Source: an uncultured Pirellulaceae bacterium
Lineage (GTDB): Bacteria > Planctomycetota > Planctomycetia > Pirellulales > Pirellulaceae
Reading direction: 5' to 3'
Length of the DNA stretch: 64,000 nt
NCBI GenBank assembly: GCA_937981585.1
Contig: CALJOA010000073.1
Location: forward strand, 811-64,810
Positions within the stretch are counted from its first letter, which is position 1. Each line of letters opens with the position of its first letter. Below are positions 37,676-56,642 of this stretch, piece by piece. Both the position numbers and the translations under genes were made by a program. The notes beneath the pieces are model-generated. The model made no database searches, was not told where the DNA came from, and saw only the letters and a list, made by a program, of their open reading frames with translations.

Positions 37676-37953
37676 GACACAGCCAACGATTTGGTTCCCA
37701 GCAGCGAGACCCTAGCGAGACTGGATGAGCCAATTTTGAATGTTGATTTAGCGCGTTAACTCACGTGAGCATCGGAGGGGATCGTCGTTTTCTGTCAGTG
37801 TCCCTAGATTTGCCAGGCGGCAAACAGAGAAATTAGGATCAAATGCGACCTCGAATTTGTCGCATGGAAAAAAAAGCTGGTAGAATTCCGGGCAACCCCT
37901 TCCTCTTGCCCGCGTAAAATTATGGACGTTCAACAGCGTCCTCATGACATCAA

Positions 37954-39846
37954 TTGAAAGCCAGTCAGCAAAAAACATCGGTGCCATCGCCAATTCAGTT
38001 GGCAATGGATCATGTGCCCAGTGCTGTACTGTGGATCGCAAGGGATGGCTCGATAACGCATGTCAACGACCAGGCGACGAAGTTACTCGGGTTCTCGCAT
38101 GACGAAATGCTCGGCAAGTCCGTTTCTCAAATCGATCTTGGCTTCTTGACCGAGCCGCAGTCTCTTGATCGCTATTTACCACCAGCGGAAGACTTATCTG
38201 AATTTTCGACTCGATTCGCGCATCGAGACGGTACCGAGATCAGCGTTGAGGTCGCCAACAGACTGATTGAAGTCAACGGCACCATGATGTGCTGTGCGTT
38301 TGTCCGCGACGTTAGCAAACTCAAGCAGAATCAACGAGAGCTTCGATTGGTCAGTGCCGGCATGCGGCATTCAATTGACGCGACTTTGATCGCGGAGGTC
38401 GACCTTCGCGATACGACCAAGAAGCCAAAAGTGCTATATGTCAACGACGCCTTCAAGCTGATGTCGAGCTACGACGACAGCGTTGGAATCGAAAATACAC
38501 CGGCGATTTTGTCGGGGCCAGAAACAAGCCAGGGGCTGCTTCGACTGATTCAAGATCAGATCGATCAACGTCAACCCTTGCGGCACGAAATCCTGGCATA
38601 CACCAAACACGGATCCAAATTTTGGGCAGAGCTTTGCCTTTCACCCATTTCAGGATGGCTGGACGAGAGCTCTTACTGGATGATTGTCTATCGAGACATC
38701 ACCAATCGAAAGCTCGACGAAAAACGATTGGCTGCTCTTCGAGATAGCCTCAAAGTGATGGTCCAGCTATTCGCAACAACCGACGGCGTTTGGGATTGGG
38801 ACATCGCACAAAACAAAGTCGAGTTTCAATCGGGATACCGAAAACTGCTTGGTTATGACGGAGACGATTTGATCGGCATCCCCAACGCCATGGAGAGCCT
38901 TGGAAGTAATATTCATCCGGATGACCGAGAGCGCGTCCTAACTTCTCGGCGAAACTCTCTCGAATCAAGAACACCGTTCGAGGAAGAGTTTCGGCTGCGC
39001 TGCAAAGACGGATCCTATTTGTGGGTGCATGATCGCGCAACTGTAATTTACAACGAGTCTGGCGATCCGATTCGAATGGCGGGTTCGATTTATGACATTT
39101 CACAGAGGAAAATTACCGAGGCGGCGCTCGATCTTGAACGTGAAATGCTCAAACGAAGCAATGCTGATCTAGAGCAGTTTGCATACGCTGCGTCACACGA
39201 TTTGCAAGAACCATTGCGTGCCGTTTCGGGGTTTATGGAATTGCTTAGGCAGCGGCACTCTCGGCAACTGGACGAGCAAGCTCAAGGGTATATCAAAAAG
39301 TCAATTGACGGTGCTGCGAGACTGAATCAGCTGATTACTGACCTGCTGCATTTCTCACGTGTTACACGTGACGAATCACGCTTCGTAAATGTTGACCTCA
39401 ACGTATGCGTTGCGAATGTAAAGAAGAACCTGGAGAGGTTGGCGCGAGAAACATCGGCGTCAATCCAAGTCGAGCCGCTTCCCACAATCATGGGCATTGA
39501 ATCTTTGCTGATGCAGTTGCTTCAGAATCTGATTGAGAACGGAATCAAGTATCGCGGTGAGAACCCGCCAACTGTCAAAGTCAGTAGCAACGACGCGGGC
39601 AAATTTGTCGAAATCCGAATCGCTGATAACGGGATTGGCATCCCACCCGAGTTTCATCAGCAAGTGTTCACGCTTTTCAAACGCTTGCATCACCGAGAAG
39701 AGTATCAAGGGACGGGAATCGGTTTGGCCATTTGCCAGCGAGTTGCCGAGCGACATGGTGGCTCCATCACCATAGAAGACAAACAAGACGGCGGTACCTG
39801 TTTCGTGGTCAGATTGTTGAAGCAGATTGAATCGCAGTTCCTTTGA
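37954..39846 (+). CDS. multi-PAS sensor histidine kinase (Cph1-type HisKA)
   Basis: Three PAS/PAC domains; FAYAASHDLQEPLR H-box, QNLIEN, DNGIGI, GTGIGLAIC. Confidence 0.92.
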   Translation: MKASQQKTSVPSPIQLAMDHVPSAVLWIARDGSITHVNDQATKLLGFSHDEMLGKSVSQIDLGFLTEPQSLDRYLPPAEDLSEFSTRFAHRDGTEISVEVANRLIEVNGTMMCCAFVRDVSKLKQNQRELRLVSAGMRHSIDATLIAEVDLRDTTKKPKVLYVNDAFKLMSSYDDSVGIENTPAILSGPETSQGLLRLIQDQIDQRQPLRHEILAYTKHGSKFWAELCLSPISGWLDESSYWMIVYRDITNRKLDEKRLAALRDSLKVMVQLFATTDGVWDWDIAQNKVEFQSGYRKLLGYDGDDLIGIPNAMESLGSNIHPDDRERVLTSRRNSLESRTPFEEEFRLRCKDGSYLWVHDRATVIYNESGDPIRMAGSIYDISQRKITEAALDLEREMLKRSNADLEQFAYAASHDLQEPLRAVSGFMELLRQRHSRQLDEQAQGYIKKSIDGAARLNQLITDLLHFSRVTRDESRFVNVDLNVCVANVKKNLERLARETSASIQVEPLPTIMGIESLLMQLLQNLIENGIKYRGENPPTVKVSSNDAGKFVEIRIADNGIGIPPEFHQQVFTLFKRLHHREEYQGTGIGLAICQRVAERHGGSITIEDKQDGGTCFVVRLLKQIESQFL

Positions 39847-39912
39847 TACGGAATTGCCGGACGGTCAACGGGATACAGGTCTAGCATTTAGCGTTTAGCA
39901 AACTTAGGTAGA

Positions 39913-40503
39913 GTGATGAATACACGCGATCGACTTCGAACAGAAACAAAAGCGATTCATGAGACGCTCGATGAAATCGTCGCCTCGCTGGAGCCTTTTT
40001 CATCGGCGCAGCGTTATCGAGTCTATCTCTCGGCAATGGATCAGCTCTACGATGTTTTTGCAGAGGATATCGATAGCGCATCAGAAGCCGCCGGGCTCCC
40101 TTGCTCGGTTCTAAGCTTGAGATCGGCGATCCGAGTCGACCTCGACGGCAATATTCTTGAGTCCGCGGCTGTTGAGCGAGATAAACTGACGAGCGACGAC
40201 TTGAAAAAAGTCAGCTCTCACCAGTGGGCGGTTGGCTACGTGATGGAAGGCTCAGCGATGGGAGCCCGATACATGGCGAAAATGGCAAAGGTGCTGGTTG
40301 AAAAATCGGACGAGAAAATTGGAAACTCGTATTTGGACAAACTTGCGGCGGACTCTTATGAACGCTGGCCGGCCTTTGTAGAGAAGCTCAACCAAGCCCA
40401 GTGTGACGATGAATTTGCAGTAGCTGCCGCGAGTTCCGTGTTTGAAACAGCGGTGACGATTTTCAACGGTTTCAAAAGAGAGTTAGTCTTGGACTCGAAA
40501 TAA
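39913..40503 (+). CDS. bphO: biliverdin-producing heme oxygenase
   Basis: LRTETKAIH (heme-ligand His), YVMEGSAMG; immediately upstream of the bacteriophytochrome. Confidence 0.88.
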   Translation: MMNTRDRLRTETKAIHETLDEIVASLEPFSSAQRYRVYLSAMDQLYDVFAEDIDSASEAAGLPCSVLSLRSAIRVDLDGNILESAAVERDKLTSDDLKKVSSHQWAVGYVMEGSAMGARYMAKMAKVLVEKSDEKIGNSYLDKLAADSYERWPAFVEKLNQAQCDDEFAVAAASSVFETAVTIFNGFKRELVLDSK

Positions 40504-40560
40504 CGGTTATGCTTAGCTCTCTTCTCTTCCCCAAATTTTTTTCTTGACACAGTATTATCT

Positions 40561-43098
40561 ATGAAACCAGAGGAAAAGCTCGCACTATCGAATTGCGATC
40601 GAGAGCCAGTTCATATTCCAGGGCGAATTCAGTCTTTTGGTTCGCTGATCGGATTTGATCTACAGACGAGCGAGCTACGTTATTTCAGCGACAACCTAAA
40701 GTCTCAGTTTCCTGACTTGCCAGAATTCTCACTCGGTGATTCTTTTGAAAATCTGTTTGCCAATCGAGAAATCACCCATGCAATTCGCGGTGGTTTAGGG
40801 CTTCCCTCGATTGGGACACAACGCGACCGTGTCGGAACATTTGAAATTGGAGCGACCGAAGCGGACATCGCGCTTTTCACGGCTAACGGGACCGGTATTG
40901 TCGAACTAGAGCCCAGCAGCTCAACCCGTTCGCGTCCGCAGGCGCCTGTTGCAGTCGTAAAGTCGATGATTTCGGTTTTGAAAACTGGCAGTGGTGTCGA
41001 GGAACTATTGGACAGCGCCGTAAAAGCGCTGCGTCACCTCACTGGGTTCGACAGAGTGATGGGATATCAATTTTTGCGAAATGGAGATGGTGAAATTACT
41101 GCGGAGGCAAAAGGGAATGGAATTGAGCCGTTTCTCGGACTCCGCTATCCAGCCTCGGACATTCCACAACAGGTTCGGGCTCTTATGCTGCGATCACAGT
41201 TTCGTTTGATTGAAACGATTGACGATCCACATGCAACGATCATGGCTAAAGATGGCGCACCACCGCTGGATTTGACTCTTTCTCAGTTACGTGGGATCTC
41301 GCCGATTTATGTTGAGTATCTCCAGAACATGGGCGTCGCCGCAACCATGAACACCTCGATTGTCGTTCGTGGCGAACTTTGGGGGATGTTTGCATTTCAC
41401 CATTACCGACCCAAGCGTATTGCTCCGGATTCGCGATCTGTGTGCGAGTTATTCAGTCAATTGATTTCGATGCAAATTCAGCAGGAAATCGAACAAGCGA
41501 CTTTCGACCGTCGGGCGCGTGCGCAAAGCTCGATGATGCAATTGGAATCTGGTTCCTATTCAGTGGAGGAGGTTTTCACTCATACCGCTTCGGAGTTAAT
41601 GGAAATCGTCAAATGCTCCGGAACCGCTTTGGTTGACGGAACATCAATCACGACGGTGGGTGAAACACCGCCGGATGAATCGATTAAGAACATAATTGAC
41701 TTGATGACTGTTGAGTTTGTCGCCTTGAATGAATTATCGGCAACTGCGCTGCCAAACCCGGAATCACTTGGCAACGTAGCCGGGGCGTTGGCGATCAGGC
41801 TTGCTCAAGACGCAAGTATCATCTTTTTCAGAAACGAAATTAAAAAAGAGATTCGCTGGGCCGGCGGGACAGAGAAAGACATCACCTACGGTCCTAATGG
41901 GCCTCGATTGACACCGCGAGGTTCGTTTGCGGAATACCTTGAATCTGTTTCGGGTTGTTGTGAACCGTGGAGCAATGACGACGTTTCGGCAGCGCATGAG
42001 ATTAGCACCAAGTTACAGAAACTACTGCATTCGGCATCCGGAAAACTCAGTCAGCATCTTGAAAAACAAAAACGGTATCAGGACTTGCTGATTGCCGAAT
42101 TGAACCACAGGGTTCGAAATACGCTTGCGCTGGTGCGTTCAATCGCCCGGCAAACGATGACTTCGACAGATTCGCTGGACCAATACATCGAAGCGCTTGA
42201 ACAGCGTATCAGCGCGCTCTCAAAGGCTCATGACTTAATCGGCGGCAGCGGATTGCAATGGGCACGTATCGAGGATCTCGTAACCGCTGAGCTCAAACCC
42301 TTTATCGATGCCAAGGCGTCAGTCGAGCTCGATGGCCCCAAGATCGCGGTCCGCGCGGACATCGCCCCGATCGTTTCTCTACTGTTTCATGAAATGACAT
42401 CCAATGCGGTTAAACATGGAGCCCTTTCGAGTAAGGGCAAAGCGTTGAGGGTGAGCTGGCAGGAACGCCAGGGAGGCGTCGCGATTGATTGGGTTGAGGA
42501 ATTGGATCAGGAGATGAACGAACCAGACCGGCAAGGGTTTGGTTTTGCACTGATCAAGCGCGCCATTCCTTACGAATGCAAAGGGAAATCGGAAATTCAC
42601 TTTCGCGGCAAGCAACTCGTGATCAACTTTTGGTTGCCCCCCGAAACGGTCCATCGGCTCTCTACCGCTCAGGAAAACCTGCCTGCAAAAACAAAGCATG
42701 ACTCTGAATCAGATGCCCAGGGAAACATAGCCGACTCAGTCCAGTCCATTATGATTGTCGAGGACAATATGGTGTTGGCAATGGAAATGGAGAGGTTACT
42801 ACTGGATATCGGAGCCAAGAGCGTAGACGCGTATCCTGACAAAAATTTGGCCGTCACTGAGCTAGATCAAAAGACGTACGACGCGGCGATTTTGGATATC
42901 AACCTTGGACCTGAGACCAGCTTCGACCTTGCGATCAAGTTACACCAAGCCGGAACGCCCGTCGTGTTTGTGAGTGGATATGATTCGAAATACGATTTAC
43001 CTGAACAGTTGATCAGATCACCACGATTGACCAAGCCCGTTAATCGTACTGAACTGATTCACGCGCTTGAGACTGCACGCGATATGGTAAAGGAATGA
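40561..43098 (+). CDS. bphP: bacteriophytochrome with HWE kinase and C-terminal receiver (PAS2-GAF-PHY-HWE-REC)
   Basis: NCDREPVHIPG (Cys12), GFDRVMGY, YPASDIP, WAG..LTPRGSF tongue, ELNHRVRNTL, HEMTSNAVKHGAL, REC AILDINL. Confidence 0.95.
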   Translation: MKPEEKLALSNCDREPVHIPGRIQSFGSLIGFDLQTSELRYFSDNLKSQFPDLPEFSLGDSFENLFANREITHAIRGGLGLPSIGTQRDRVGTFEIGATEADIALFTANGTGIVELEPSSSTRSRPQAPVAVVKSMISVLKTGSGVEELLDSAVKALRHLTGFDRVMGYQFLRNGDGEITAEAKGNGIEPFLGLRYPASDIPQQVRALMLRSQFRLIETIDDPHATIMAKDGAPPLDLTLSQLRGISPIYVEYLQNMGVAATMNTSIVVRGELWGMFAFHHYRPKRIAPDSRSVCELFSQLISMQIQQEIEQATFDRRARAQSSMMQLESGSYSVEEVFTHTASELMEIVKCSGTALVDGTSITTVGETPPDESIKNIIDLMTVEFVALNELSATALPNPESLGNVAGALAIRLAQDASIIFFRNEIKKEIRWAGGTEKDITYGPNGPRLTPRGSFAEYLESVSGCCEPWSNDDVSAAHEISTKLQKLLHSASGKLSQHLEKQKRYQDLLIAELNHRVRNTLALVRSIARQTMTSTDSLDQYIEALEQRISALSKAHDLIGGSGLQWARIEDLVTAELKPFIDAKASVELDGPKIAVRADIAPIVSLLFHEMTSNAVKHGALSSKGKALRVSWQERQGGVAIDWVEELDQEMNEPDRQGFGFALIKRAIPYECKGKSEIHFRGKQLVINFWLPPETVHRLSTAQENLPAKTKHDSESDAQGNIADSVQSIMIVEDNMVLAMEMERLLLDIGAKSVDAYPDKNLAVTELDQKTYDAAILDINLGPETSFDLAIKLHQAGTPVVFVSGYDSKYDLPEQLIRSPRLTKPVNRTELIHALETARDMVKE

Positions 43099-44630
43099 AA
43101 AAAGTCCTGATCGTTGAAGACAATCAGCAACTTGCATCGCACTGGATTGCGTTGCTTGAGCGTGAAGGTTTGCAAGTCATTCACGAGGTTTCGACACCAG
43201 CAGCGTTAGATTATTTGAAATCGAACGAGGTTGATCTGGTTATCTCTGACATGGTCATACCCGATGCGTCAGGTGTACCATCTCCGCACGGCGGATTGCT
43301 TATCCTGGCATTCATCGCGCTCAACGTTGACAACCCACCTAAGGTCCTGGCCGTCAGTGGCCTCGACACCGAGTCAACTTTTTTCGCTACTTTCAAATTG
43401 CTCGACCCCGGAAAGGCATTGCTCAAGCCAGTTGCTGACGAAACGTTGCTCGAACGAACACGCACATTGCTCGCCGAACGTGAGCAAGAACTTGCTCAGC
43501 TCGCAGCCGCAAAATTGTTCCAACGTGAACTTTTGCAGAATAAGTTTGCGACCGACCATGCTTCGCACGGAGTGTTTTGGGTCGGCAAGGACGCGTCGAT
43601 TCTTTATGCAAACCTGGAAGCACAAAGGTTGTTGGGGTATTCGATCGAAGAACTTTGCCAAATGTCGGTCTTTGATATTGATGCCGAAATTTCCGAGTCA
43701 GACTGGGAGCTTGTTTGGGCAAGGTTTAGCCAGCCGGGGCCTCATCAGTTAAAGACCATTCATCAGCGACGCAATGATTCAGCGTATCCCTGCGAAGTTA
43801 CGATCTCGCATTTAAGTTTCGAGTGCGAAGAGTTTTTGCTTGCTTCCTTCCAAGACATCACAGAACGTTTGGCTCAGCAAAAAAGACTTATCGAATATGC
43901 CGAGCAAAAAAGGCACTCCGAGGAGCTTGAATCAATCAATACCCAACTTACACTCAGCAATCAGGACCTTGGCCAGTTCGCTTATGTGGCTTCGCATGAC
44001 TTGCAGGAACCACTTCGAGCGATCAGCGGTTTTTTGCAACTCCTGAAAGAGCGCTACCCCAATCAATTGGATGAAAAAGCGATCGGGTATATCGATAAGT
44101 CAGTTGATGGAGCGGCCCGAATGAATCAGCTGATCAATGACCTTCTGCATTATTCACAGGTCACCCGAGACGAATCAGGTTTTGTTCGTGTTGAACTGGG
44201 GAAGTGTGTTGAGCTGGCCTGTGAAAAACTTGATCAGTTAATTCTCGATTCCGACGCCGAAATTGAAATTGCAGAACTGCCTTCGATAGGTGGGATCGAG
44301 TCACTGTTAGTTCAAATGTTTCAGAATTTAATTGAGAACGCAATTAAGTATCGCAGCGATGGGTCGCTAAGGATAAAAGTGTTTTCGGGACAGGACTCCT
44401 CAGGATTTTTAGTTCACGTTCAAGACAACGGGATTGGCATCGCGCCAGAGTATCAAGAGCAAGTCTTTGCCTTGTTCAAGCGATTGCACCACCGGGAAGA
44501 ACATTCAGGGACCGGGATTGGGTTGACGATCTGCCAGCGGGTCGCTGAGCGACATGGCGGAACGATTTCAGTGAAATCTTCAGAGGGAAGCGGGAGTTGC
44601 TTCACGGTCCGGTTTCCCAAACCTTCTTAG
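43095..44630 (+). CDS. REC-PAS-histidine kinase (Cph1-type HisKA)
   Basis: N-terminal VLIVEDN..ISDM receiver, one PAS, FAYVASHDLQEPLR, DNGIGI, GTGIGL; 4-bp overlap with bphP. Confidence 0.92.
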   Translation: MKKVLIVEDNQQLASHWIALLEREGLQVIHEVSTPAALDYLKSNEVDLVISDMVIPDASGVPSPHGGLLILAFIALNVDNPPKVLAVSGLDTESTFFATFKLLDPGKALLKPVADETLLERTRTLLAEREQELAQLAAAKLFQRELLQNKFATDHASHGVFWVGKDASILYANLEAQRLLGYSIEELCQMSVFDIDAEISESDWELVWARFSQPGPHQLKTIHQRRNDSAYPCEVTISHLSFECEEFLLASFQDITERLAQQKRLIEYAEQKRHSEELESINTQLTLSNQDLGQFAYVASHDLQEPLRAISGFLQLLKERYPNQLDEKAIGYIDKSVDGAARMNQLINDLLHYSQVTRDESGFVRVELGKCVELACEKLDQLILDSDAEIEIAELPSIGGIESLLVQMFQNLIENAIKYRSDGSLRIKVFSGQDSSGFLVHVQDNGIGIAPEYQEQVFALFKRLHHREEHSGTGIGLTICQRVAERHGGTISVKSSEGSGSCFTVRFPKPS

Positions 44631-44845
44631 TTGTTTGCTAAGCTTGTCGGATTAGGTTGACAGCGACCCCGTCGAATTAACGTTTCGCGGCCAAAACCAT
44701 TTGGATCGCAAGAGAATTAGGTTGCTGCTACTTAATTTTCGTCGAAAAAACGTTAGAATTTTGGCTTCCAATGCATTAGCGAAGGATCTCTCTGCCATTG
44801 GCCTATGTCCTCCACGGACTCCCTTCCTTTCAAAAATGGCCGTCC

Positions 44846-45286
44846 ATGAGCAACGCTGAAAAGATAATCGACATTTTACTTGTCGAAGACAGTGAGACAG
44901 ACGCCGAGCTCACGCTTGAAGCGCTTCGGCAAGGCAAACTCCAAAACACTGTGCATCACGTCAAAGATGGCGTTGAGGCCCTGAAGTACTTGCGCCGTGA
45001 AGGCGAGTACTCTGAAATGCTTCGTCCAGATTTGATTCTGCTGGATCTGAACATGCCCAAGCTCGATGGCCGGGAAGTGTTGAGGCGAATCAGAGACGAC
45101 AAAGAGCTTAACGTGATCCCAATCGTTGTATTGACAACCTCTAACAGCGACAAAGACATCCTCGAATCATATGGGCTTTCAGCCAACAGCTACATCGTCA
45201 AACCGGTTGACCTCAAGAACTTTTTTGAGGTGATCAAGGAGATTAACAATTTTTGGGTTCGGGTAGTTGCGCTTCCCCCCAAGTAG
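44846..45286 (+). CDS. single-domain response regulator, Rcp1-like
   Basis: ILLVED...PDLILLDLNMPKLDG...LTTS...ANSYIVKP...FW pattern of phytochrome-partner receivers. Confidence 0.92.
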   Translation: MSNAEKIIDILLVEDSETDAELTLEALRQGKLQNTVHHVKDGVEALKYLRREGEYSEMLRPDLILLDLNMPKLDGREVLRRIRDDKELNVIPIVVLTTSNSDKDILESYGLSANSYIVKPVDLKNFFEVIKEINNFWVRVVALPPK

Positions 45287-45360
45287 CAACTCGCAAGAAT
45301 GCCGTTTCCATTTGTCCTTTCAAGTCATTGCACAAATAACCAGACGTTCCGGAGAGACGA

Positions 45361-48300
45361 TTGACTAAGCAGACCCCTTCTTTAGTTGTTGGAATTGGCG
45401 CCTCAGCTGGTGGACTAAAACCGATTGAAGAGTTCTTTGACAACATGCCCGTCGATAGTGGCATGTCTTTTGTTGTTGTGCAGCATTTGTCACCGGACTT
45501 TAAGAGTTTGATGGATGAGTTATTGGCTCGGCATACGAAAATGGCGATCCACAAAGTGAGTGACGGTGTCACGATTGAGCCTAACTCGATCTATCTGATT
45601 CCACCCAAGAAGAGCATGAAGATGTCTGAAGGTAGGCTTCTGCTGACCGACAAGGACGAAAGCACCGGGCTGAATCTGCCGATTGATATCTTCTTTCGTT
45701 CATTGGCTGAGGATGCTGGAGATCGAGCTGTGGCGATCATTCTCTCAGGCACTGGTAGCGATGGTTCGCGCGGCGTCAAAGACGTACATGAGCGTGGCGG
45801 TCTGGTGCTCGTCCAATCACTCGAAACAGTTGGGTTCGACGGAATGCCCAGGGCCGCGATCAGTTCAGGGGTCGTTGATCTAATCTGCAACCCAGATGAA
45901 ATGCCCGAACGGATCATTGAATACAGCAGTAGCTATGACCGAAAAGCACTACAGCAAACTGAGTTTCAAGACGATGCCAAGGAGGGTGGTGGAAAGTCGG
46001 GAGAGACCGCGGTCTTTCGCATTTTCCGGATGTATCGTCAGCAACACAACCTTGACTTTTCGCTGTATAAACCCGCAACCATCAATCGGCGGATCGAACG
46101 TCGAATGCAACTTTGTGCGATCAGTGACATCGATGAGTACGTCGACCGCTTGGAGAACGATGAAGAAGAAGCCGACGTGCTCTACCGGGACCTACTTGTC
46201 GAAGTAACGCACTTCTTCAGAGACCCCGAGGCATTTCAACGAATGCGCGAGACGGTCATTCCGGACATGATCAGCCGCAGCGACCCTGACATTGAGATTC
46301 GGGTTTGGGTTTGCGGCTGTGCGACGGGCGAAGAGGCTTACTCAGTGGCAATTCTTCTGGCAGAAGCAATTAAACGCGCTGGCCGAAAGCAGACTTTTAA
46401 AGTTTTCGCCACCGATGTTCACCGCAAGTCCCTTGAGATTGCCAGTGCAGGGTTCTATCCGCTGCATTCACTCGACAGTGTGCCGCATGATTTGCAGATC
46501 TACTTTGTCAAGAATAATGGCATTTGCACTGTCACCCGTGAGATTCGGCAGAGCGTTATTTTTGCTGCCAACGATTTGACCAGAGATCCACCCTTTACCC
46601 GGATTGACTTGATCACCTGTCGCAATGTTCTGATCTATCTCAAACCAAAAATTCAAAAACGTGTTCTTTCGATGTTTCACTTTGGTTTGCGGGTGAAAGG
46701 GATTTTGTTTCTTGGCCCAAGTGAAACAGTTGGCGAGTTGGCAACCGAGTTTGAGCGAGTCGATCGGCATTGGCGAATCTACAGTAAACTTCGCGATGTT
46801 CGATTGCCTGACTCTTCTCGGATGCCTCTGACGCCTGTTTTAGGCTCTGTTGTGCACGAGCCTGCCAACAATTTCGTTGCGCAAAACTACAATAATCGAA
46901 CTCAAGTTTGGTTGTCATCCGCTTACGAGGACCTGCTCGCCAAGCACGTTCCACCGAGTTTGCTCGTCGATGAATTTAACGAGTTGGTTCATTGCTTTGG
47001 TTCTGCGCGCAAGTTGCTAACGCCCCCCGAGGGAAAGCCTTGCAATGATGTTTTAAAAATGCTTGAAAAGGATTTGAGCGTTGCCGTTAGTTCGGCCCTT
47101 CATCGTGCCAAGCATGAAGGAATTCCCGTGACATACAAAGGGATTCGAGTTTCTATCTCGAATTCTGAACAGCGGTTGTATCGCGTAACAGTAGAGCCCT
47201 ACAAAAAAACAGACCGTTCGTTGTATTTGATTTCGCTTGAAGAGACCGAGAAGGTTCAAAAAACAGAACAGGTAATCGAGGATTTTGTCACGGGTGAAAG
47301 CGGCAACCAGCGGGTTGGTCAGCTTGAGCGCGAGTTGAGCTACACGCGGGAAACACTACAGGCGACAGTTGAAGAGTTGGAGTCAAGCAACGAAGAGCTT
47401 CAAGCGACCAACGAAGAGTTGATCGCTTCTAACGAAGAACTTCAGTCAACCAATGAAGAGCTTCACAGCGTCAATGAAGAGCTCTACACCGTCAACACAG
47501 AACACAAAGAAAAGATTGAAGAGTTGACCGTATTGAGTAGCGATATGGATAACTTGCTGCGCAACACAGAAATTGGCACGATCTTTCTGAATCGGGACTT
47601 TACGATTCGTATGTTCACGCCGTCAATCACCGCCGGCTTTAACGTTCTTGATCACGACATCGGTCGGCCGATCAGCCACATTGCCTACAAGCTGGACAAC
47701 TCGAATTTGCTGGCAGATGCAGCAAATGTTCTTGAAACCGGTGAACCAATGGAAATGGAAGTTCGAGGTAAAGACGGGCTTACTTACTTGCAACGGATTC
47801 AACCCTACCGAGTCGATAATCTCATTGAAGGCATCGTGCTTACTTTGACTGACATTTCAGCGATCAAAGAAGCAGAGATGGCGCGAACAACGATGCAGTC
47901 GCTTAGTGAAATCAGCCAGGAGCTTCCCGATTTCGCGTATGCGGTGTCTCACGACCTCCAGGCTCCATTGCGCCACATTAGTCAGTACACTCAGATTTTA
48001 GAGACCGCATTGGAGGCTGGAAAAGATACCGACATCGTAAAAGCGACGCGCGTAATTCGAAATAGCTCGTCGGCTTTGCGGTCGATGCTTGATGGACTGC
48101 TGGCCTATTCAAGAATCAACACACTTGGAAAGCCGCTTCAAAAGGTCAAAGTGTCTGTGCCGCTGCAAGGGGCAATTCGCGAGTTGCAATCGGCCATCGA
48201 TGCCATCGACGCAGAGATCGTCGTCGAAAAAGACTTGCCAGAAGTTTTGGGGGACACCGATCAGCTCAAGCTGCTTTTCTTTCATTTAATCGATAATGCT

Positions 48301-48648
48301 CTTAAATATCGTTCGGAGCGAGATCCTCGAATTGAGATCAGCTGCGACTTCGTTGATGGAATGGCTCAGTTTTCGGTTTCGGACAATGGCATCGGGATCG
48401 AGTCACATCATGCCGACAATGTTTTCACCATCTTCAATCGCAGTCAGATGGCGGACGACGTACCTGGTGCCGGTGTCGGTCTGGCAATTTGTCGCCGGAT
48501 CACATTGCGTCATCGAGGCCGAATTTGGCTTGAACGCACTGTGGCCAACGGCTCAACCTTTCGATTCACTCTTCTCCTTCCTGCCGCCCATGAGTCTCCT
48601 CGTCAATCGACGCAACCAACTCGTCAACTTTCGTCTCAGGATGTCTAA
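45361..48648 (+). CDS. CheB-CheR-PAS-histidine kinase fusion
   Basis: CheB triad [17 protein letters not shown]; Che[28 protein letters not shown]; NEEL heptads; SHDLQAPLR kinase; TTG start with GGAGAG RBS. Confidence 0.92.
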   Translation: MTKQTPSLVVGIGASAGGLKPIEEFFDNMPVDSGMSFVVVQHLSPDFKSLMDELLARHTKMAIHKVSDGVTIEPNSIYLIPPKKSMKMSEGRLLLTDKDESTGLNLPIDIFFRSLAEDAGDRAVAIILSGTGSDGSRGVKDVHERGGLVLVQSLETVGFDGMPRAAISSGVVDLICNPDEMPERIIEYSSSYDRKALQQTEFQDDAKEGGGKSGETAVFRIFRMYRQQHNLDFSLYKPATINRRIERRMQLCAISDIDEYVDRLENDEEEADVLYRDLLVEVTHFFRDPEAFQRMRETVIPDMISRSDPDIEIRVWVCGCATGEEAYSVAILLAEAIKRAGRKQTFKVFATDVHRKSLEIASAGFYPLHSLDSVPHDLQIYFVKNNGICTVTREIRQSVIFAANDLTRDPPFTRIDLITCRNVLIYLKPKIQKRVLSMFHFGLRVKGILFLGPSETVGELATEFERVDRHWRIYSKLRDVRLPDSSRMPLTPVLGSVVHEPANNFVAQNYNNRTQVWLSSAYEDLLAKHVPPSLLVDEFNELVHCFGSARKLLTPPEGKPCNDVLKMLEKDLSVAVSSALHRAKHEGIPVTYKGIRVSISNSEQRLYRVTVEPYKKTDRSLYLISLEETEKVQKTEQVIEDFVTGESGNQRVGQLERELSYTRETLQATVEELESSNEELQATNEELIASNEELQSTNEELHSVNEELYTVNTEHKEKIEELTVLSSDMDNLLRNTEIGTIFLNRDFTIRMFTPSITAGFNVLDHDIGRPISHIAYKLDNSNLLADAANVLETGEPMEMEVRGKDGLTYLQRIQPYRVDNLIEGIVLTLTDISAIKEAEMARTTMQSLSEISQELPDFAYAVSHDLQAPLRHISQYTQILETALEAGKDTDIVKATRVIRNSSSALRSMLDGLLAYSRINTLGKPLQKVKVSVPLQGAIRELQSAIDAIDAEIVVEKDLPEVLGDTDQLKLLFFHLIDNALKYRSERDPRIEISCDFVDGMAQFSVSDNGIGIESHHADNVFTIFNRSQMADDVPGAGVGLAICRRITLRHRGRIWLERTVANGSTFRFTLLLPAAHESPRQSTQPTRQLSSQDV

Positions 48649-48650
48649 CC

Positions 48651-51236
48651 ATGTCGATCACGCCCACATACGATAACAACCGATCCCGGCGGCTTTCGGG
48701 TCGAGCGTCCAAACAAGATGATTCGGCAATCCGGTTCGTGGTGGGAATCGGGGCATCGGCTGGTGGGCTGCAGTCTATTGAACGACTGCTAAAGTCAATG
48801 GAGCCAGTTCCAACAGATAGCGCGTTTATAATCGTGCAGCACATGTCGCCGGACGTTGAAAGCAGCATGGAAGAGATTTTGCAACGATTCACCGACATGG
48901 GCGTAGTTTCAGTAAAAGATGGAATGACACTTGAGCCGAACACGATTTTTCTGATTCCGCCGGCAAAAGAAATGCGACTTCAAGGCCAGTCGTTTACCTT
49001 GGCAGATTTGGATCGCGATCAAATCGCGCGACCAATCGACATCTTCTTTGAATCGCTCGCTGAAAATTATGGCAAGCAGGCGATCGGCATGGTCCTTTCA
49101 GGAACAGGCAGCGACGGCGCTGATGGCATTGAGACGATTCACCAACGCGGCGGGTACACGATTGTTGAATCGTTGGAGACCGCTCAATTCGACGGGATGC
49201 CGAGAAACGCAATTGGCAAAGACTGCATTGACAAAGTACTTTCTCCTGAGGAAATCGGACAGTGGCTTTCCGCCAAGTTCAGTGATTCAGAATTTGAAGT
49301 TGAACTATCGACCCCTCTCGATCGTGACGAGCTGTCGGGAATCAACTTGATCTTTTCGCTTTTGGCAGAAAAGCACGAGAACGATTTCTCCTGCTACAAG
49401 CCGGAAACCGTAGCTCGTCGAATCGAGCGGCGTCAGAAAATGAATCGCAGTAAATCTCTGCTTGAGTATGCCGAGCTGCTTCGTGGCAACGATGAAGAAT
49501 TGGAGTTGCTCTACCATGACCTTCTTATTGGAGTTACCAAGTTTTTTCGTGACACCGAAGCTTTTGAACGCTTGGCAAAACACTTAAACGAGCAGATCCA
49601 ATCACTTCCCGTCGGCGACGAGTTTCGCGTCTGGGTAGCTGGCTGTGCAACGGGCGAAGAGGCGTATTCAATCGCAATGCTTTGCCATGAAGCTTTTGAT
49701 TTTGCGAACAAGCCTGCCTCCTTTAAAATTTTTGCAACCGACATTCACGGTGGCAGTCTTGAACATGCGTCACGTGGAGTCTATTCGCCGGACTCCATGG
49801 AGTTTGTGGGGCTCGACCGCCAGCAGAAGTATTTTGATCAAGAGGACTCTCAGCGCTTTCAGGTTGGATCGGTTTTGAGGAAGCACTTGGTCTTTGCCAG
49901 ACACAATGTTGTTCAGGATCCCCCATTTACCAAAATGGATGTTGTGACTTGTCGCAACCTTCTGATCTATTTGCAAACTGATGCACAGGCTCAAGCGATT
50001 TCTTCATTCCATTTTGCACTTAGGCGCGGTGGGTTGATGATGATGGGAGCCAGCGAATCTCCTGGTCGACTGAGCGATGAATTTGAGGTCGTGGATGAGA
50101 AATGGAAGTTCTACAGCAAGCTCCGAAACCTTCCGGCCAGTAGTCGCGGAGAGAAACTCGACGTCATGAAAGCTTCGATGGCGCGGCCACGGCGGCTTAT
50201 CAATTTGCTCAATAACGATCGCCCGGAAACGCTCAGCTTTACTGGGCTTCTTGAAAGTTACGATCTCGTTTTGCAGGAGTTTGTGACGTCGGGAATTCTT
50301 CTCGATGATCAACGTAACGTGATGCATATTTTTGGTGACGCTTGCCGTTATTTGAGTAGCAAATCGGGAAGGTTTACTGGAAGTATTACTGGGTTCCTTC
50401 TCGGCGATGCGAAGGTTTCAATTGCCTCTGCGCTGATTCGTGCGGCGAAAGAACCAGGAAAGCAGGTCGTTCTTGAAGGGCTCAAATTGCCTGTCGGTGA
50501 CACAACCGAAGTCACCGATGTATACGTTAAATCTATCAAAGGCCAAGCGACATCGACCCATGTCTGGTTTGTTGTATTCGAACCGTCGCAAAATTCGAAA
50601 TCCAAAGAGCAAGCGGAAAAGGACGAGACTGACATCATCCGTGTCAACCTTTCCAATGACGCTTATGCTGCGATGGAGTCGGAGCTGATGTATACCAAAG
50701 AGAGCCTCAGCGCGACGATCGAGCAAGTAGAAAGAAGCAACGAAGAATTGCAGGCGGCAAATGAACAATTGGTCGCAGCCAATGAGGAACTGCAAAGCAC
50801 CAACGAAGAATTGCACAGTGTTAACGAAGAGCTCTATTCAGTTAATGCAGAAAACCAACGGAAGATTCTGGCGCTTGAAGAAATGACAGACGATGTCGAC
50901 AACCTGCTCGCCAGCACAGATATCGGAACCATCTTTCTTGATGAGAAATTGCAAATCCGACGATTCACCCGCGCTGCTGCCAATTACGTTAAACTTCTCC
51001 CGAGTGATATCGGGCGAGAAATTACTGACTTTGCCCTGCATATTGACTTGCCGGATTTTTTCGAAAAAATCAAAAGCGTCTTCGCCAACGCTGAGCCTTT
51101 TTCGGAACACGCCACCGCAAAAAATTTGAACCGGGTTATGGTTCGTGTTACGCCTTACTTCAGCCAAAAAAAGATGAAAGGAGCGATTGTGAACTTCATT
51201 GACATGGGCGACGTAAAACCGCCAGCGGACTCTTGA
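48651..51236 (+). CDS. CheB-CheR-PAS fusion without kinase
   Basis: GASAGG/VQHM/SGTGSDG; [23 protein letters not shown]; NEEL heptads; ends after the PAS domain. Confidence 0.92.
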
Positions 51237-51326
51237 GAGTTTCACTTCCTCCCCGACGAAAAAAAATCTCTCTAAAACGATGGTTCAGAACTCGATTTAG
51301 AGCCCTCCCCAAACTAATGGATTGAC

Positions 51327-54300
51327 ATGAACCTGCCCGATGGAAATGTAGGCGGAACCTCAGAAGTAGCCGACAAACATCAAACCGACCCCTCAAAGAA
51401 CAACGAGTCGGACATGATTGTTGTTGGCATCGGTTCATCGGCCGGTGGCGTTGAAGCACTGGAAGCGATGTTTTCAGTGATGCCAGACAAGTTGGGGATG
51501 GCCTTCATCGTCGTGCAACACTTGTCACCTGACTTTGAGAGTTTGATGCCTCAGATTCTTGCGCGCAAGACAGTGATGCCAGTGAGCGCCATTGAGAATC
51601 AACAGACTCTTGAGCCAAATCGTGTCTATGTGCTGCCCAGCGGAAAAGACTTGATCATTTCTGATCGTGTCCTTTATACCCGAGCCCAAGACGACAAACG
51701 TTCATTGAACAAGCCGATCGACCAGTTCTTTTTCTCTCTGGCCAATGACGTCGGGCAATCAGCAGTCGGTGTGGTGCTGTCGGGGACTGGAAATGATGGC
51801 TCACGCGGCATTCGGGAAATTCACGATGCGGGTGGCTTGGTTATTGTGCAAAGCGAAAAGTCCGCCAAGTTCAACGGCATGCCGCGTTCTGCAATTAACA
51901 CAGGGATTGTGGATTCGATTGCCACCATTGATGACATCCCAAATTCATTGATTCGATTTAGTGAACTCGGAAGCAGTGATTCAAAAGGATCAAGGCTTGA
52001 TCAATTTGCCGACTCAATGGAAACAGAGAGTCGAATTCTCCACTTGCTCCACGTTCATTTTGGCATCGACTTTGAACAGTATAAGAACGATATGTTCGGC
52101 AGGAGAGTTGAGCGGCGAATTTGCCTGACTAAGGAGTCGTCAACAGAAAACTACCTGATGCGGCTGGAGAATGACCCGCAAGAATTAAAACAGCTTTACT
52201 CAGACCTATTGATCGGCGTGACAGAGTTCTTTCGGGACCGAGAGGCTTTTGACGAACTGCAGATGCGAGTCTTGCCGGCGCTACTTGATGCCGCCGCTCC
52301 AACTGGCGAGTTTCGCGTTTGGGTAGCGCCATGTGCCTCCGGCGAGGAGGCGTACTCATTGGCGATCATTATTGATGAGCTCTTGAAGAAACGAGACTAT
52401 GAGCTCGACGTGAAAATTTTCGCTACCGATGTCAACTCAGATTGTATTGAGTTTGCCGGGCGAGGCGTCTATCCCGAAGAGTGCCTTGGCAATGTCAGTC
52501 CGCAAAGGATCGAGAACTATTTTGAACACGGCGACGAAGGCTTTCTTGTATCCCGAGAGCTCAGGAAGCAAATTGTTTTCGCAACGCATAACGTTCTACA
52601 GGACGCGCCATTTACGAAACTTAACTTGGTCTCATGTCGGAACTTGCTGATCTACCTTAAGGCCGATGCAAAAAGGAAGATCCTCTCCTTATTCAACTTT
52701 AGCCTCATCAAGAACGGAATCTTGTTTCTCGGACCAAGTGAATCACTCGCGGAGTTGGCGCACGAATTTCGCACCGTCAATGACCGTTGGAGAATTTTTC
52801 GAAAAGTTGCCAAAGTGCGGATTTCGGCGGTCAATTTGCCCAACAACCTTCCGCTACGCCCCAGCAAGTCGACGCCGGAAGATCGAATTGGCATGCCCCA
52901 TTCGGAGTTAATGAATGTCTACGACTCTCTTCTGGGTGAGTTCATGCCGCCAGGATTGTTGATCGATGAAAATCATCAGATCGTCCACATCTTTGGCGCG
53001 GCGACCAAATATTTGGAGTTTAAACCAGGTCGACCCACGAGCGATTTTCTTGAGCTGCTGCCACCGACGTTTCGCATTGCGGTTTCCAATGGCCTCAAGC
53101 GGGTGAAAGTGGATTCCAAGCCTGTGGTATATCCGGGCTTAAAGTTTGAACTTGGCGACGACAAAGTCACTTCGATCCGCATCTCCATCAAGTCGGCAGA
53201 GGCGGCATTGAGTCCAAAGTTCCTGGTGATCTTCGAGGACGAAAGCGACAGCTTGGCACATTCATTTGCAGACGTCATTCCGATCGACGGTGGAGCAGCA
53301 AGTGTTGAACGGATCCAGTTTCTCGAAGAACAACTGCAAAGCACTCGCGAGAGTCTGCATGACTCAATCCTTGATCTGAAGTCAGCCAACGAAGAGATGC
53401 AGTCGACAAACGAGGAGCTGATCGCATCCAATGAAGAGCTTCAGTCGACCAATGAAGAGCTGCACAGCGTCAACGAAGAACTGTACACAGTCAACTCAGA
53501 GCATCAGCGAAAAATTACCGAGTTGACTGAGATGACCGACGACATGGAAAATCTGCTTGACAGTATCCAGGTCGATACGATTTTCCTAGACCGAGAATTG
53601 AAGGTTCGAAAATTTACTCTGGGCATCGCGAAAACATTCCGTTTGATCCCTCAGGACTTGGGGCGCCACATTGATTCATTTAACCACGAGCTTCAGTGTA
53701 AGGACATTGTTGAGCTGGTTGAGAAAGTTCTCGAATCCGAATTGCTGTTTGAGGAAGAAGTTCAAGACAACGATCAAAATTGGTATTTGATGCGGTTATT
53801 GCCCTATAACTCGCGTGGGAAAGTCGACGGTGTGTTGCTTACATTGATCGACATCACCAAGATCAAGGAGACGGAGCAGAAACTCGCCGAGCTTTCAGAA
53901 ATCGTCCAGTCTTCTGATGACGCGATCTTCCGAATTTCGCTTGACGGTACCATCCGAACCTGGAATCACGGATCGGAGCGACTCTTTTCGCACACGGCCA
54001 AATATATGATCGGCAAAAACGTCAGTGTGCTGATGCTCTACGAAGAAGGGCAAAATGCCCTGACAAGTGCGCTCGCTACGATCGAGCGCGGTGAGCGGAT
54101 CGACCACATCAAGATGAAAGCCGTGCGCCGAAACGGCGAAGAGGTCGACGTGCAAATGTCCGTTTCGCCAATCCGAGGCGCCGACAATGAATTGGTAGCC
54201 GCCTCGATTGTTCTTCGGGATTTCACAAAAGAGAAACAAGCCGAAGACGCAAACCTCGAAGCCGTTCGTCGACGCGATCAATTTTTAGCGATGCTGTCTC

Positions 54301-55403
54301 ACGAGTTGCGCAATCCAATCGCAGCGATCATGAATGCATTGGCAGTTTTGAAAGTTCAGGAAACTGTCAACCAAAGCGATGCTGCCGCTCGAAATGTAAT
54401 CCTTGGGCAATCGAAACAGTTGGCTAAACTACTGGACGATCTGCTTGATGTCTCACGAATTACACATGACAAGATCAAGCTCGATATGAAACCAGTTAAC
54501 TTGGTACAGTTCTCCAGCCAAGTTACCGAGTGCATCGAAAGTCGAATTCAAGAGAAAAACCAAAGCCTGACTTTGGAGATGCCAAACAAACCGGTATTCA
54601 TTCACGCAGACGCCACCAGAATCATTCAGGCGCAGGTGAACCTGATGGTCAACGCGACCAAATACACGCCCGTTGGTGGCAATATCAAGTATTCGATTTC
54701 TATAGTCGGCAAAGACGCCGTTATCGAAGTTGAAGATGATGGCGAGGGAATGAGCCCCGAACTGCTGAAAAAGGTATTTGAGGTTTTTGTCCAAGCCGAC
54801 CAGCCGTTGGATCGAAACGTCGGTGGAATGGGACTGGGTTTACCACTTGTCAAAATGATTGCTACTGCCCATTCAGGGGAAGTTCGAGCCTTTAGCAGAG
54901 GACTCGGTAAGGGTAGCAGGTTCTCCCTGATTTTCCCGACCACCGAGGAATGTGGACTTCCTCAAACTCCCATAACCCGACCACCGATCGAATCTCTCTC
55001 TTGCAAAAAACTTTTGCTTGTCGAAGACAACGATGGAGCCCGCAAGATGTTAGCGGAGTATCTTTCAATCGAAGGGTTTGAAGTACATTCTGCAGCCAAC
55101 GGAAGAGAGGCTATCGACTCATATGGAACTTTCTGCCCCTCAATTTGTATTGTTGACATCGGATTACCAGATCTCAATGGCTTCGAAGTGGTAACTCAAA
55201 TTGGAACACATGAACATCAACCCCGTTTGACGATCGCATTGACTGGTTACGGGCAGGAAAACGATCGCCGCGAAATTCTCGAAGCGGGATTTGATCTGCA
55301 CATCGTCAAGCCTGTTGCGCCAGACGAGTTGATCGATACGATTATGATGAAACTTGGCACCATGGAATCCCAGTCAGATTCAACATCTTCCAAACCTGTT
55401 TGA
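51327..55403 (+). CDS. CheB-CheR-PAS-PAS-histidine kinase-REC hybrid
   Basis: GSSAGG/VQHL/SGTGNDG; CASGEEAYS; NEEL heptads; LSHELRNP, DDGEGM, GMGLGL; REC IVDIGLP. Confidence 0.92.
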   Translation: MNLPDGNVGGTSEVADKHQTDPSKNNESDMIVVGIGSSAGGVEALEAMFSVMPDKLGMAFIVVQHLSPDFESLMPQILARKTVMPVSAIENQQTLEPNRVYVLPSGKDLIISDRVLYTRAQDDKRSLNKPIDQFFFSLANDVGQSAVGVVLSGTGNDGSRGIREIHDAGGLVIVQSEKSAKFNGMPRSAINTGIVDSIATIDDIPNSLIRFSELGSSDSKGSRLDQFADSMETESRILHLLHVHFGIDFEQYKNDMFGRRVERRICLTKESSTENYLMRLENDPQELKQLYSDLLIGVTEFFRDREAFDELQMRVLPALLDAAAPTGEFRVWVAPCASGEEAYSLAIIIDELLKKRDYELDVKIFATDVNSDCIEFAGRGVYPEECLGNVSPQRIENYFEHGDEGFLVSRELRKQIVFATHNVLQDAPFTKLNLVSCRNLLIYLKADAKRKILSLFNFSLIKNGILFLGPSESLAELAHEFRTVNDRWRIFRKVAKVRISAVNLPNNLPLRPSKSTPEDRIGMPHSELMNVYDSLLGEFMPPGLLIDENHQIVHIFGAATKYLEFKPGRPTSDFLELLPPTFRIAVSNGLKRVKVDSKPVVYPGLKFELGDDKVTSIRISIKSAEAALSPKFLVIFEDESDSLAHSFADVIPIDGGAASVERIQFLEEQLQSTRESLHDSILDLKSANEEMQSTNEELIASNEELQSTNEELHSVNEELYTVNSEHQRKITELTEMTDDMENLLDSIQVDTIFLDRELKVRKFTLGIAKTFRLIPQDLGRHIDSFNHELQCKDIVELVEKVLESELLFEEEVQDNDQNWYLMRLLPYNSRGKVDGVLLTLIDITKIKETEQKLAELSEIVQSSDDAIFRISLDGTIRTWNHGSERLFSHTAKYMIGKNVSVLMLYEEGQNALTSALATIERGERIDHIKMKAVRRNGEEVDVQMSVSPIRGADNELVAASIVLRDFTKEKQAEDANLEAVRRRDQFLAMLSHELRNPIAAIMNALAVLKVQETVNQSDAAARNVILGQSKQLAKLLDDLLDVSRITHDKIKLDMKPVNLVQFSSQVTECIESRIQEKNQSLTLEMPNKPVFIHADATRIIQAQVNLMVNATKYTPVGGNIKYSISIVGKDAVIEVEDDGEGMSPELLKKVFEVFVQADQPLDRNVGGMGLGLPLVKMIATAHSGEVRAFSRGLGKGSRFSLIFPTTEECGLPQTPITRPPIESLSCKKLLLVEDNDGARKMLAEYLSIEGFEVHSAANGREAIDSYGTFCPSICIVDIGLPDLNGFEVVTQIGTHEHQPRLTIALTGYGQENDRREILEAGFDLHIVKPVAPDELIDTIMMKLGTMESQSDSTSSKPV

Positions 55404-55582
55404 TTGCTCAGCAGGCATAAGATTCTTGCTAGCGACGGGATCAATTTTTAGTAACCAGCGGGATTGACAGTATTTTATGAATCAAAATAATCGAACCTGA
55501 CATGATGTCTTCTCTTTTAAGCATGGATGCTCCCCCGTCGGCTCGGATTGCCGGCTCACCCCAACAACAGTACGGAGACGCC

Positions 55583-56323
55583 ATGTTAGTTCTTTCAAGA
55601 AAAGTTAAAGATACGATTCGATTTCCGGAACTGGACATCACCATTGAAATTCTCAAGGTGAAAGGGGCAAGCACTCGGATTGGAATTGACGCGCCCCTGG
55701 AAATTCAAGTCCTCCGCGGTGAGCTTGAAACAGAGCCGACTGTCGCTCGGAAAATTCTAGTCGACGCCGATACCGAGCACGACACACGAAACAAGCTCAA
55801 CAAACTCTCGATTGCCGCAGCTCTTGCGAAAAAATTGATCGAGCGAGGCGAGTTCAATCTGGCAGCAGAGAAATTGGAGAAAACAATTTCTGAAATGGGC
55901 GTGCCTTCCCAAACGACTTCCGGTCTCCAAGCCCTTTTGGTTGAAGACGCCGAGAATGAAAGAGAAATGCTCGCGGGATTTCTGAGGCTTCACGGATACA
56001 ACGTCACCACTGTGGCAGATGGCGTTGAAGCGATGGAGTTCTTGGAGTCAAACGAAAAACCCGATTTGATTCTCATTGACATGAACATGCCGCGGCTGGA
56101 CGGGCCTTCCACAATTCACTTGATTCGCGCCAATGTTGCCTTCGATAAGGTCGAGATTTTTGCGATCAGTGGTCAGTCTGCGAAATCCGCCAAAGTCGAT
56201 GTTGGTAAGAATCGAGTCGCACATTGGTTTCAAAAACCCCTCAGACCAAGCGACCTGGTCGATGCCATCAACAAAAGATGCGTTTCGGCCGAACTTGCCA
56301 GCGCTGGCTATTCAAACAACTAG
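55583..56323 (+). CDS. CsrA-domain / receiver-domain fusion
   Basis: MLVLSRK...RIGIDAP..VLRGEL CsrA fold; middle helix EHDTRNKLN; REC LLVED..LIDMNMP..KP; ATG 55583 after GGAG. Confidence 0.88.
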   Translation: MLVLSRKVKDTIRFPELDITIEILKVKGASTRIGIDAPLEIQVLRGELETEPTVARKILVDADTEHDTRNKLNKLSIAAALAKKLIERGEFNLAAEKLEKTISEMGVPSQTTSGLQALLVEDAENEREMLAGFLRLHGYNVTTVADGVEAMEFLESNEKPDLILIDMNMPRLDGPSTIHLIRANVAFDKVEIFAISGQSAKSAKVDVGKNRVAHWFQKPLRPSDLVDAINKRCVSAELASAGYSNN

Positions 56324-56605: not shown

Positions 56606-56642
56606 AACGGAGGTGGTTTCAAAACCACCTCCGTTTCCTTTT
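56606..56642. terminator. 14-bp hairpin, probable terminator between convergent units
   Basis: AACGGAGGTGGTTT-CA-AAACCACCTCCGTT followed by TCCTTTT. Confidence 0.6.

Follow-up and report, generated by a model that had tools for sequence, protein, structure and literature searches.

This study concerns nine co-oriented genes (37954 to 56323) within a 64,000-nucleotide stretch of DNA from an uncultured Pirellulaceae bacterium (contig CALJOA010000073.1 of assembly GCA_937981585.1), the whole of which is called the window below. An earlier note had read these genes as one light-gated phosphorelay, in which a bacteriophytochrome and three receptor-less CheB-CheR fusions act on a CsrA-REC protein. 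As a nine-gene light circuit, the cluster is not conserved. What is conserved is a unit made of a hybrid kinase, often of the MAC1 class, together with a response regulator of predicted CsrA-(DHp-like)-REC architecture and RNA elements bearing GGA motifs, and the nine genes are better read as two modules rather than one system. All nine open reading frames (ORFs) are intact and lie where stated, and their Pfam matches include five kinase domains and five receivers (REC), which bears out the gene count and domain content first reported. Pfam likewise found no methyl-accepting chemotaxis protein (MCP), CheA, CheW or DNA-binding domain among the nine genes, as had been stated.

The CsrA fusion and its probable kinase partners

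Across 151 genomes of the family, the CsrA-REC query matched 51; 55 matches in 47 genomes were counted as full or near-full fusions, and 11 mostly receiver-only matches were left out. Eighteen of the 55 genes have a MAC coiled coil no more than 6 kb away, where chance would give about 0.2; this supports the earlier idea that methylation-type kinases are tied to a CsrA output. MAC proteins are present in 37 of the 47 genomes with the fusion versus 32 of the 104 without it, a comparison in which related genomes are not independent. The gene-neighbourhood check proposed at the outset thus gave a divided answer, with MAC and CsrA genes co-located and the phytochrome not a conserved neighbour. Among 72 distinct Planctomycetia loci, a MAC gene occurs within 3 kb of the fusion in 25, another hybrid kinase in 14, a simple kinase only in one and a receiver only in four. 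The MAC and CsrA genes are convergent in 11 cases, co-directional in 10 and divergent in four, in two families; because their orientation varies, the pairing has survived rearrangement.

The genes concerned in the window are:

45361-48648, + strand: MAC1-A, CheB-CheR-coiled coil (47362-47487)-PAS_10-histidine kinase (Pfam; six heptads)
48651-51236, + strand: MAC1-B, CheB-CheR-coiled coil (50712-50837)-PAS_10, without a kinase (Pfam, motifs)
51327-55403, + strand: MAC1-C, CheB-CheR-coiled coil (53382-53486)-PAS-PAS-hybrid kinase-REC (Pfam, motifs)
55583-56323, + strand: CsrA (residues 1-50)-predicted DHp-like hairpin (52-104; His66 at 55778-55780)-REC (Asp166 at 56078-56080)

In all three fusions CheB and CheR lie in one chain, with the esterase S-H-D residues and the CheR motifs intact. 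MAC-A and MAC-C also carry a kinase in the same chain, and MAC-B is a kinase-less variant. The heptad motif applied to their coiled coils is the methylation-site pattern of MCPs: each MAC has five to six in-register glutamate heptads with 7-residue spacing (six to seven motif matches per whole protein), and these heptads are near-invariant across 47 MAC proteins. By domain order and motifs, the three fusions are assigned to the MAC1 class, and the coiled coil of each is likely the methylation substrate of its own CheB and CheR. The description of the fusions as receptor-less therefore holds only for a separate MCP, which is indeed missing from the cluster, because each bears methylation-type heptads in what appears to be its own methyl-accepting coiled coil. 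The A/B/C triplet together with a CsrA fusion was found in six genomes from two families (the window, L001, L024, L032, L164 and L168). MAC-C copies of the triple cassettes form a clade in a quick tree (SH-like approximate likelihood ratio test, 96), with a small change beside the TGEE motif only. A division of labour among the three MACs was considered and rejected; all keep their catalytic motifs.

The likely start of the last gene is ATG 55583, which follows a GGAGA Shine-Dalgarno sequence and gives a protein of 246 aa, not 55502. The label CsrA-REC was correct for both of the domains that it named, and it missed a third between them. In the AlphaFold model a pair of helices (residues 52-87 and 91-104), with the motif H-x-x-R-N-x-L, lies between CsrA and REC. 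A profile of this hairpin matched 57 kinase HisKA domains with 96.5% probability (E 8.6e-10), while coiled-coil and reversed decoys in the same comparison reached 0.3 and 0.7%. HisKA is also the commonest Pfam match, found in 19 of 54 members and weak in all (best E 2.7e-4); SPOB_a matched weakly in 3 of 54. Foldseek returned nothing at E <= 0.001 for the 51-residue hairpin model, and receiver domains only for the whole protein. Among the 120 listed homologues (of 242 found, four being identical to seed rows), the His, Arg and Asn of the hairpin are kept in 113, 115 and 112, respectively, and a separate count has the His kept in 62 of 67. An ATPase domain is missing, the hairpin being flanked directly by CsrA and REC. 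The middle domain is unannotated in all 120 homologues, which are annotated as CsrA and REC alone. The gene is thus predicted to be a CsrA-(DHp-like)-REC fusion with a hidden histidine-bearing domain.

The CsrA domain scores 52 bits against PF02599 (cut-off 27) and lies below the NCBIfam cut-off for full-length csrA. Arg6 and Arg45, which are RNA-binding residues of CsrA, occur in 120 of 120 homologues. A phylum sample of 301 genomes yielded this family in eight, which all belong to the same class. All 40 copies with a hybrid as their nearest kinase retain the hairpin histidine, as do 42 of 50 others (90 sequences; p 0.008, uncorrected and with kin not independent). CsrA-REC copies without it lie upstream of a non-hybrid MAC-A in L024 (4514), L170 (5321) and L180 (1867); L024 and the genome of L032 and L180 also retain a His-bearing copy beside a hybrid MAC-C. 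The host genome encodes a second, degenerate CsrA-hairpin paralogue (G000:C111:15364-16218, - strand), with no His and no receiver match, which could form mixed dimers. Stand-alone His-less DHp-like ORFs of 79-84 aa were also observed just upstream of csrA-DHp-REC (L191:6096-6350, L192:399-638 and L194:408-659), that of L191 sitting between csrA-DHp-REC and a hybrid MAC1; a role as inhibitors or adaptors is possible.

When the MAC-C receiver was modelled together with the CsrA-hairpin dimer, the docking score was 0.61, and the best control scored 0.00. Of 157 solved complexes 116 reach the docking mark, as do 2 of 215 mismatched pairs, counts that hold only roughly here. The runs share at least 94% of contacts, with a partner pLDDT (predicted local distance difference test) of at least 82, and the predicted interface sets REC alpha1 on helix residues 69-84, after the His, which is the kinase-regulator geometry and agrees with the DHp/REC docking described in one source (PMC9981736). 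At eight docking positions, likeness to the CsrA-side receiver was 6.4 for the receivers of adjacent non-MAC hybrid kinases (n=14) versus 0.2 for non-adjacent ones (n=25). Of the receivers in the window, that of MAC-C scored 10.8, the single-domain receiver p5 0.9 and the phytochrome BphP -8.5; p4 was left out.

We give about an even chance to a relay that would run from the hybrid MAC1 kinase to its own receiver, on to the built-in histidine and then to the receiver of the RNA-binding regulator, ending in translation control. MAC-C would methylate its own coiled coil, tuning its kinase, and its C-terminal receiver would pass phosphate to His66 of the DHp-like hairpin. His66 would hand the phosphate on to Asp166 within the same protein, and phosphorylation of Asp166 would switch how CsrA binds RNAs with GGA hairpins, among them probably the leader of its own gene and the RNA downstream of that gene. 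In a parallel branch, p1, p4 and MAC-A would act on the receiver p5. Domain content, intact catalytic motifs, the conserved His, genomic linkage and RNA motifs are observed directly. Methylation, each phosphotransfer, the direction in which control runs and the identity of the CsrA bound to the RNAs are deduced.

Several observations weigh against the relay. The genome has one Hpt domain elsewhere, six other CsrA matches and FliW, and thus other phosphate routes and RNA binders exist. The hairpin profile hit no solved kinase, ChpT or Spo0B; its weak PDB hits are tetratricopeptide repeat (TPR)-like, and up to 7 of the 54 hairpin members also match TPR families. His66 lies outside the confidently placed docking contacts, the docking pass may stem solely from likeness to solved kinase-regulator complexes, and any receiver might dock. 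A conserved Asn at H+4 is also compatible with a phosphatase role. No MAC match was obtained in 10 of the 47 fusion-bearing genomes, and signalling genes are lacking within 3 kb of the fusion in 28 of the 72 loci.

Some of these points suit a DHp-derived hairpin that does not carry phosphate forward. It would instead drain phosphate or act as a phosphatase, or would serve as a lever for dimerisation between REC and CsrA, with kinases phosphorylating Asp166 directly. The H+4 Asn is retained in the 112 homologues noted above, yet an acid at H+1 occurs in only 74 of 120, as opposed to 46 of 48 true kinases (the H+5 Pro is relaxed as well); 8 of 90 copies persist without the His, as does the paralogue in the same genome, and the weak TPR-like matches also fit. 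Such a role is nevertheless unlikely: retention of the His follows hybrid-kinase neighbours, and the receivers of adjacent hybrid kinases have docking residues in common with the terminal one, as expected if one DHp surface serves both.

RNA elements around the csrA fusion

Three elements surround the fusion gene. They are compared here with G126, a genome of another genus that holds a copy of the cluster (80.5% identical over 16.7 kb, with different flanks and without p1):

55464-55509, + strand: sigma-70-like promoter match (11/12) and palindrome GACATGATGTC (55499-55509), 5' of the csrA fusion
55520-55577, + strand: leader with a CsrA-type CANGGANG hairpin (55520-55531) and ANGGAN over the Shine-Dalgarno sequence (55572-55577), also conserved in G126
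56480-56642, + strand: conserved non-coding RNA candidate with promoter-like site that bears the same palindrome (56490-56500), GGA multi-stem (56514-56606) and 13-bp terminator (56606-56635)

The promoter-like site of the csrA fusion is the best in the region, which contains 14 such sites versus 16.3 in shuffles, so it is not proof of a promoter. The GGA motifs of the leader lend sequence support to the RNA-binding output proposed originally; the RNA elements themselves had been overlooked in the earlier note. The CANGGANG motif is present in 17 of 76 fusion leaders versus 5 of 259 control genes (with starts guessed); after de-replication it occurs in 17 of 74 leaders, against a shuffle mean of 2.5 (maximum 9), none on the opposite strand and 4 of 50 MAC leaders. 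GGA hairpins over the Shine-Dalgarno sequence are the layout described for CsrA-repressed leaders (PMC13443453). The leader could be bound by any of the CsrA proteins of the genome. The palindrome (GACAT-N-ATGTC) precedes both the csrA fusion and the downstream RNA; as it has eight sites in the genome and is not general in other loci, it is assigned no regulator. A scan for a CsrA regulon gave 29 genes with leader hairpins and was too unspecific for interpretation.

Downstream, some 180 nt share 94% identity with G126, whereas the sequence on either side diverges. This segment folds well (z-score -4.4), ends with the 13-bp terminator and had no Rfam match. A two-sequence profile detected a homologue just 3' of the fusion gene in L190, a locus from a metagenome (E 0.0014), and another, weak, in L194; the element of L192 was spotted by eye. 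In the five-locus alignment an 8-bp stem closes the structure; one of the hairpins inside it displays GGA in a conserved loop, and further GGA motifs occur. In this alignment 94% of cells pair, and compensatory change is seen in 2 of 21 pairs (a score reached by 8 of 500 shuffles, with five related rows). Nowhere beyond these five seed loci was the element found among 94 sources, and among 150 family genomes it was found in the host and G126 only. A coding role was rejected because a 10-codon reading is non-synonymous at both sites that differ between the window and G126. A sponge small RNA is one identity for the element, at somewhat less than an even chance; RsmY/Z carry more GGA motifs than it does, and it could alternatively be an element of the 3' untranslated region.

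The phytochrome module

The other five genes of the cluster are:

37954-39846, + strand: p1, PAS-PAS-PAS histidine kinase (Pfam)
39913-40503, + strand: bphO, heme oxygenase, likely supplying biliverdin (PF01126, E 2.6e-8)
40561-43098, + strand: bphP, PAS-GAF-PHY-HWE-REC bacteriophytochrome (Pfam, motifs)
43095-44630, + strand: p4, REC-PAS histidine kinase, overlapping the bphP stop by 4 nt
44798-45286, + strand: p5, single-domain receiver (Pfam)

The phytochrome keeps PAS-GAF-PHY, the N-terminal Cys12 and the DIP and PRxSF motifs, and its best PDB match is 6G1Y/9RN8, which we take to be Agrobacterium Agp2. In this strain the conserved His of the bilin pocket is replaced by Tyr250 (41308-41310), in agreement with a contig from a second sample of the same study. 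The G126 orthologue and five more keep the His, and so do 17 of another 18 loci, the ORF of the last one giving no motif match. Since the pocket His is important for bilin photochemistry, the sensor may be altered or decaying.

Nine of the 151 genomes of the family contain PHY, and 29 of 401 in the order have phytochromes. A phytochrome lies beside the MAC1/CsrA cassette in this genome and in G126 only; none of 24 other fetched phytochrome loci (some ending at contig ends), the two closest HWE-type orthologues included, contains MAC1 or CsrA-REC. No metagenome relatives of the phytochrome were confirmed. A REC-led kinase is found 3' of bphP in many other phytochrome loci, and p4 is the likely recipient of the phytochrome signal. 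Planctomycetes also have a common cassette that stands alone (L057-L060, L148-L160) and consists of bphO, a bphP kinase, a single receiver and a REC-kinase-REC, and domain profiles recognise no output gene in it.

Of p1, about 117 nt of the start is all that matches G126. Orthologues of p1, 50-54% identical, adjoin csrA-DHp-REC in L187 and L188, and in these relatives the cassette has no phytochrome. L188, a close relative, comprises the csrA fusion, p1 and p5 orthologues, MAC-A and MAC-B. Because close relatives have a phytochrome-free cassette, bphO-bphP-p4 is probably a recent addition that entered one lineage between p1 and p5. The premise that light forms part of a conserved circuit is not supported by this cassette and by the distribution of phytochromes described above. 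Homologues of p5, 40-93% identical, belong to the MAC cassettes L001, L024, L164, L168 and L188, and p1, p4 and MAC-A have the H-box SHDLQxPL in common. Given these shared H-boxes, p5 is likely the common partner of the three kinases. Light could enter via the N-terminal receiver of p4, and as bphO-bphP-p4 was likely inserted into the p5 branch, it probably gets no further than p5; control of CsrA by light is possible but unsupported, and we regard it as quite unlikely.

The nine genes might still form one light-gated circuit, for instance from BphP through p4 and p5 to His66, with p5 acting like Spo0F. The position of bphO-bphP-p4 inside the cassette, co-oriented and with short gaps, agrees with this, as do its 79-87% identity in a second genus with other flanks and the retention of His66 beside a simple kinase only in L187 and L188. 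Against it stand the 24 phytochrome loci that have neither MAC1 nor CsrA-REC, the p5 and BphP receivers falling off the docking profile, the Tyr at the conserved phytochrome position and the promoter-like site that the csrA fusion has of its own, which make a single circuit improbable. A further possibility is a fully post-transcriptional relay with no transcription factor, in which self-methylating MAC1 kinases with adaptation memory would phosphorylate CsrA by way of its internal histidine carrier, CsrA would repress its own leader and be buffered by the sponge RNA, and, in this lineage, an inserted phytochrome would feed red/far-red light into the same output; this combination is slightly more improbable still.

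Genomic setting and known systems

The region 37632-57000 is covered by contigs of run X1, which may be the source sample, in two pieces, with one base different. PSCyt, PSD1 and DUF1501 genes in the window identify the host as a planctomycete, and full-length homologues (17 among 80 loci) carry the titles Pirellulales, Planctomycetaceae, Isosphaera and Planctomycetota, one being titled only 'bacterium'. The three CheB matches of the host genome all lie within the cluster; there are one PHY and seven CsrA matches, six of the latter outside the cluster. MCPsignal and CheW had no match in the host genome, which is 80% complete; CheA is absent from the cluster, no genome-wide search for it having been made. 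Flagellin likewise had no match, and as that search covered an incomplete genome only, no claim on motility is made. A plain csrA adjoining fliW was observed elsewhere in the assembly (G000:C54:20959-22003), though the assembly gave no flagellin match.

The cluster has a GC content of 49.2% against 51.4 +/- 0.7%, and 1 of 199 windows is equally low. Immediately to its left lies a Wadjet-type jetABCD defence operon (30150-36920, - strand), with a short repeated element between jetD and jetC (about 31350-31415) that has several matches in G126. A small PD-(D/E)XK-family gene (PDDEXK_3; 37346-37675, - strand) marks the left edge of the cassette. What is likely left of an integrative conjugative element lies to the right (56657-63755), with genes for RadC/JAB, for an ATPase resembling type IV coupling proteins (58751-60910) and for an HTH protein, as well as ORFs without annotation. 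An exopolysaccharide gene cluster (7-14426; Wzz, Wzy, export, glycosyl- and sulfotransferases) lies about 24 kb left of the cassette, with no evidence of a link.

The CheB, PHY and CsrA-REC genes of the cluster were not found in the same-genus genome G120, and the cluster is probably a mobile island. It would be consistent with these flanks, the low GC content and the lack of a match in G120 if the island had merely gathered unrelated signalling genes, with MAC1 not wired to the CsrA fusion; the linkage of MAC and CsrA genes, some 100-fold over chance, in three orientations and two families, renders this very improbable. That the CheB and CheR domains act on chemoreceptors encoded elsewhere rather than on their own coiled coil is very unlikely given the near-invariant glutamate heptads and the failure to find MCP or CheW in the 80%-complete host genome, although all five other triple-MAC genomes tested carry at least one MCP, so that action in trans is conceivable.

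MAC1 proteins are described as combining receptor, kinase, CheB and CheR functions in one chain (bioRxiv 10.1101/2022.05.07.491037; PMC6943060). MAC proteins are proposed precursors or remnants of chemotaxis systems, and one of these sources, from 2022, presents them as having no known experimental characterisation (bioRxiv 10.1101/2022.05.07.491037). The fusions in the window resemble this class in joining CheB and CheR to a receptor-like coiled coil and a kinase with no need for CheW, and the cluster differs from a canonical chemosensory system in having no MCP, CheW or CheA. Unlike MAC1 as described, there are three paralogues per cassette, one of them kinase-less, and a conserved partner gene that is a candidate output. 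As in CckA-ChpT-CtrA (PMC9981736) and Spo0F-Spo0B-Spo0A, a hybrid-kinase receiver is predicted to dock a DHp-type His carrier through REC alpha1. Unlike ChpT and Spo0B, the putative carrier consists of the hairpin alone, lacks a degenerate ATPase domain and sits within the terminal regulator, whose output is RNA-binding rather than DNA-binding; by analogy, the hairpin most likely resembles those proteins in its working only and is not a member of their families.

Response regulators with a CsrA output are a listed category (PMC2222644), and the fusion shares with them and with Csr/Rsm systems a CsrA domain with RNA-binding arginines and GGA leader hairpins over the Shine-Dalgarno sequence. Known control of CsrA is given as indirect, through sRNAs driven by BarA-UvrY or through FliW, the latter suggested for Planctomycetes (PMC4682653), whereas here it would be direct phosphorylation. 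The phytochrome genes resemble known bphO-bphP operons in their PAS-GAF-PHY-HWE-REC architecture, upstream heme oxygenase and N-terminal Cys, and differ from them in the Tyr at the pocket His and the location within a MAC1 cassette. Both CheB-CheR fusions (MAC1) and CsrA-output regulators have been described, and the parts of the conserved unit belong to known categories. The middle domain, the MAC1-CsrA linkage and the downstream RNA were not found described in a search that covered few subscription journals, and older surveys may note the first two.

For the MAC1 kinases, these results offer a conserved candidate output, a residue path from the MAC-C Asp to His66 and Asp166, and a reporter in the GGA leader of the fusion itself, and therefore make MAC1 function directly testable. 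If the relay holds, CsrA would here be controlled through phosphate on its own chain, and a phosphotransferase would be fused inside a response regulator, neither of which was found described in the same search, and the downstream element would be a candidate CsrA-binding RNA outside the gamma-proteobacteria.

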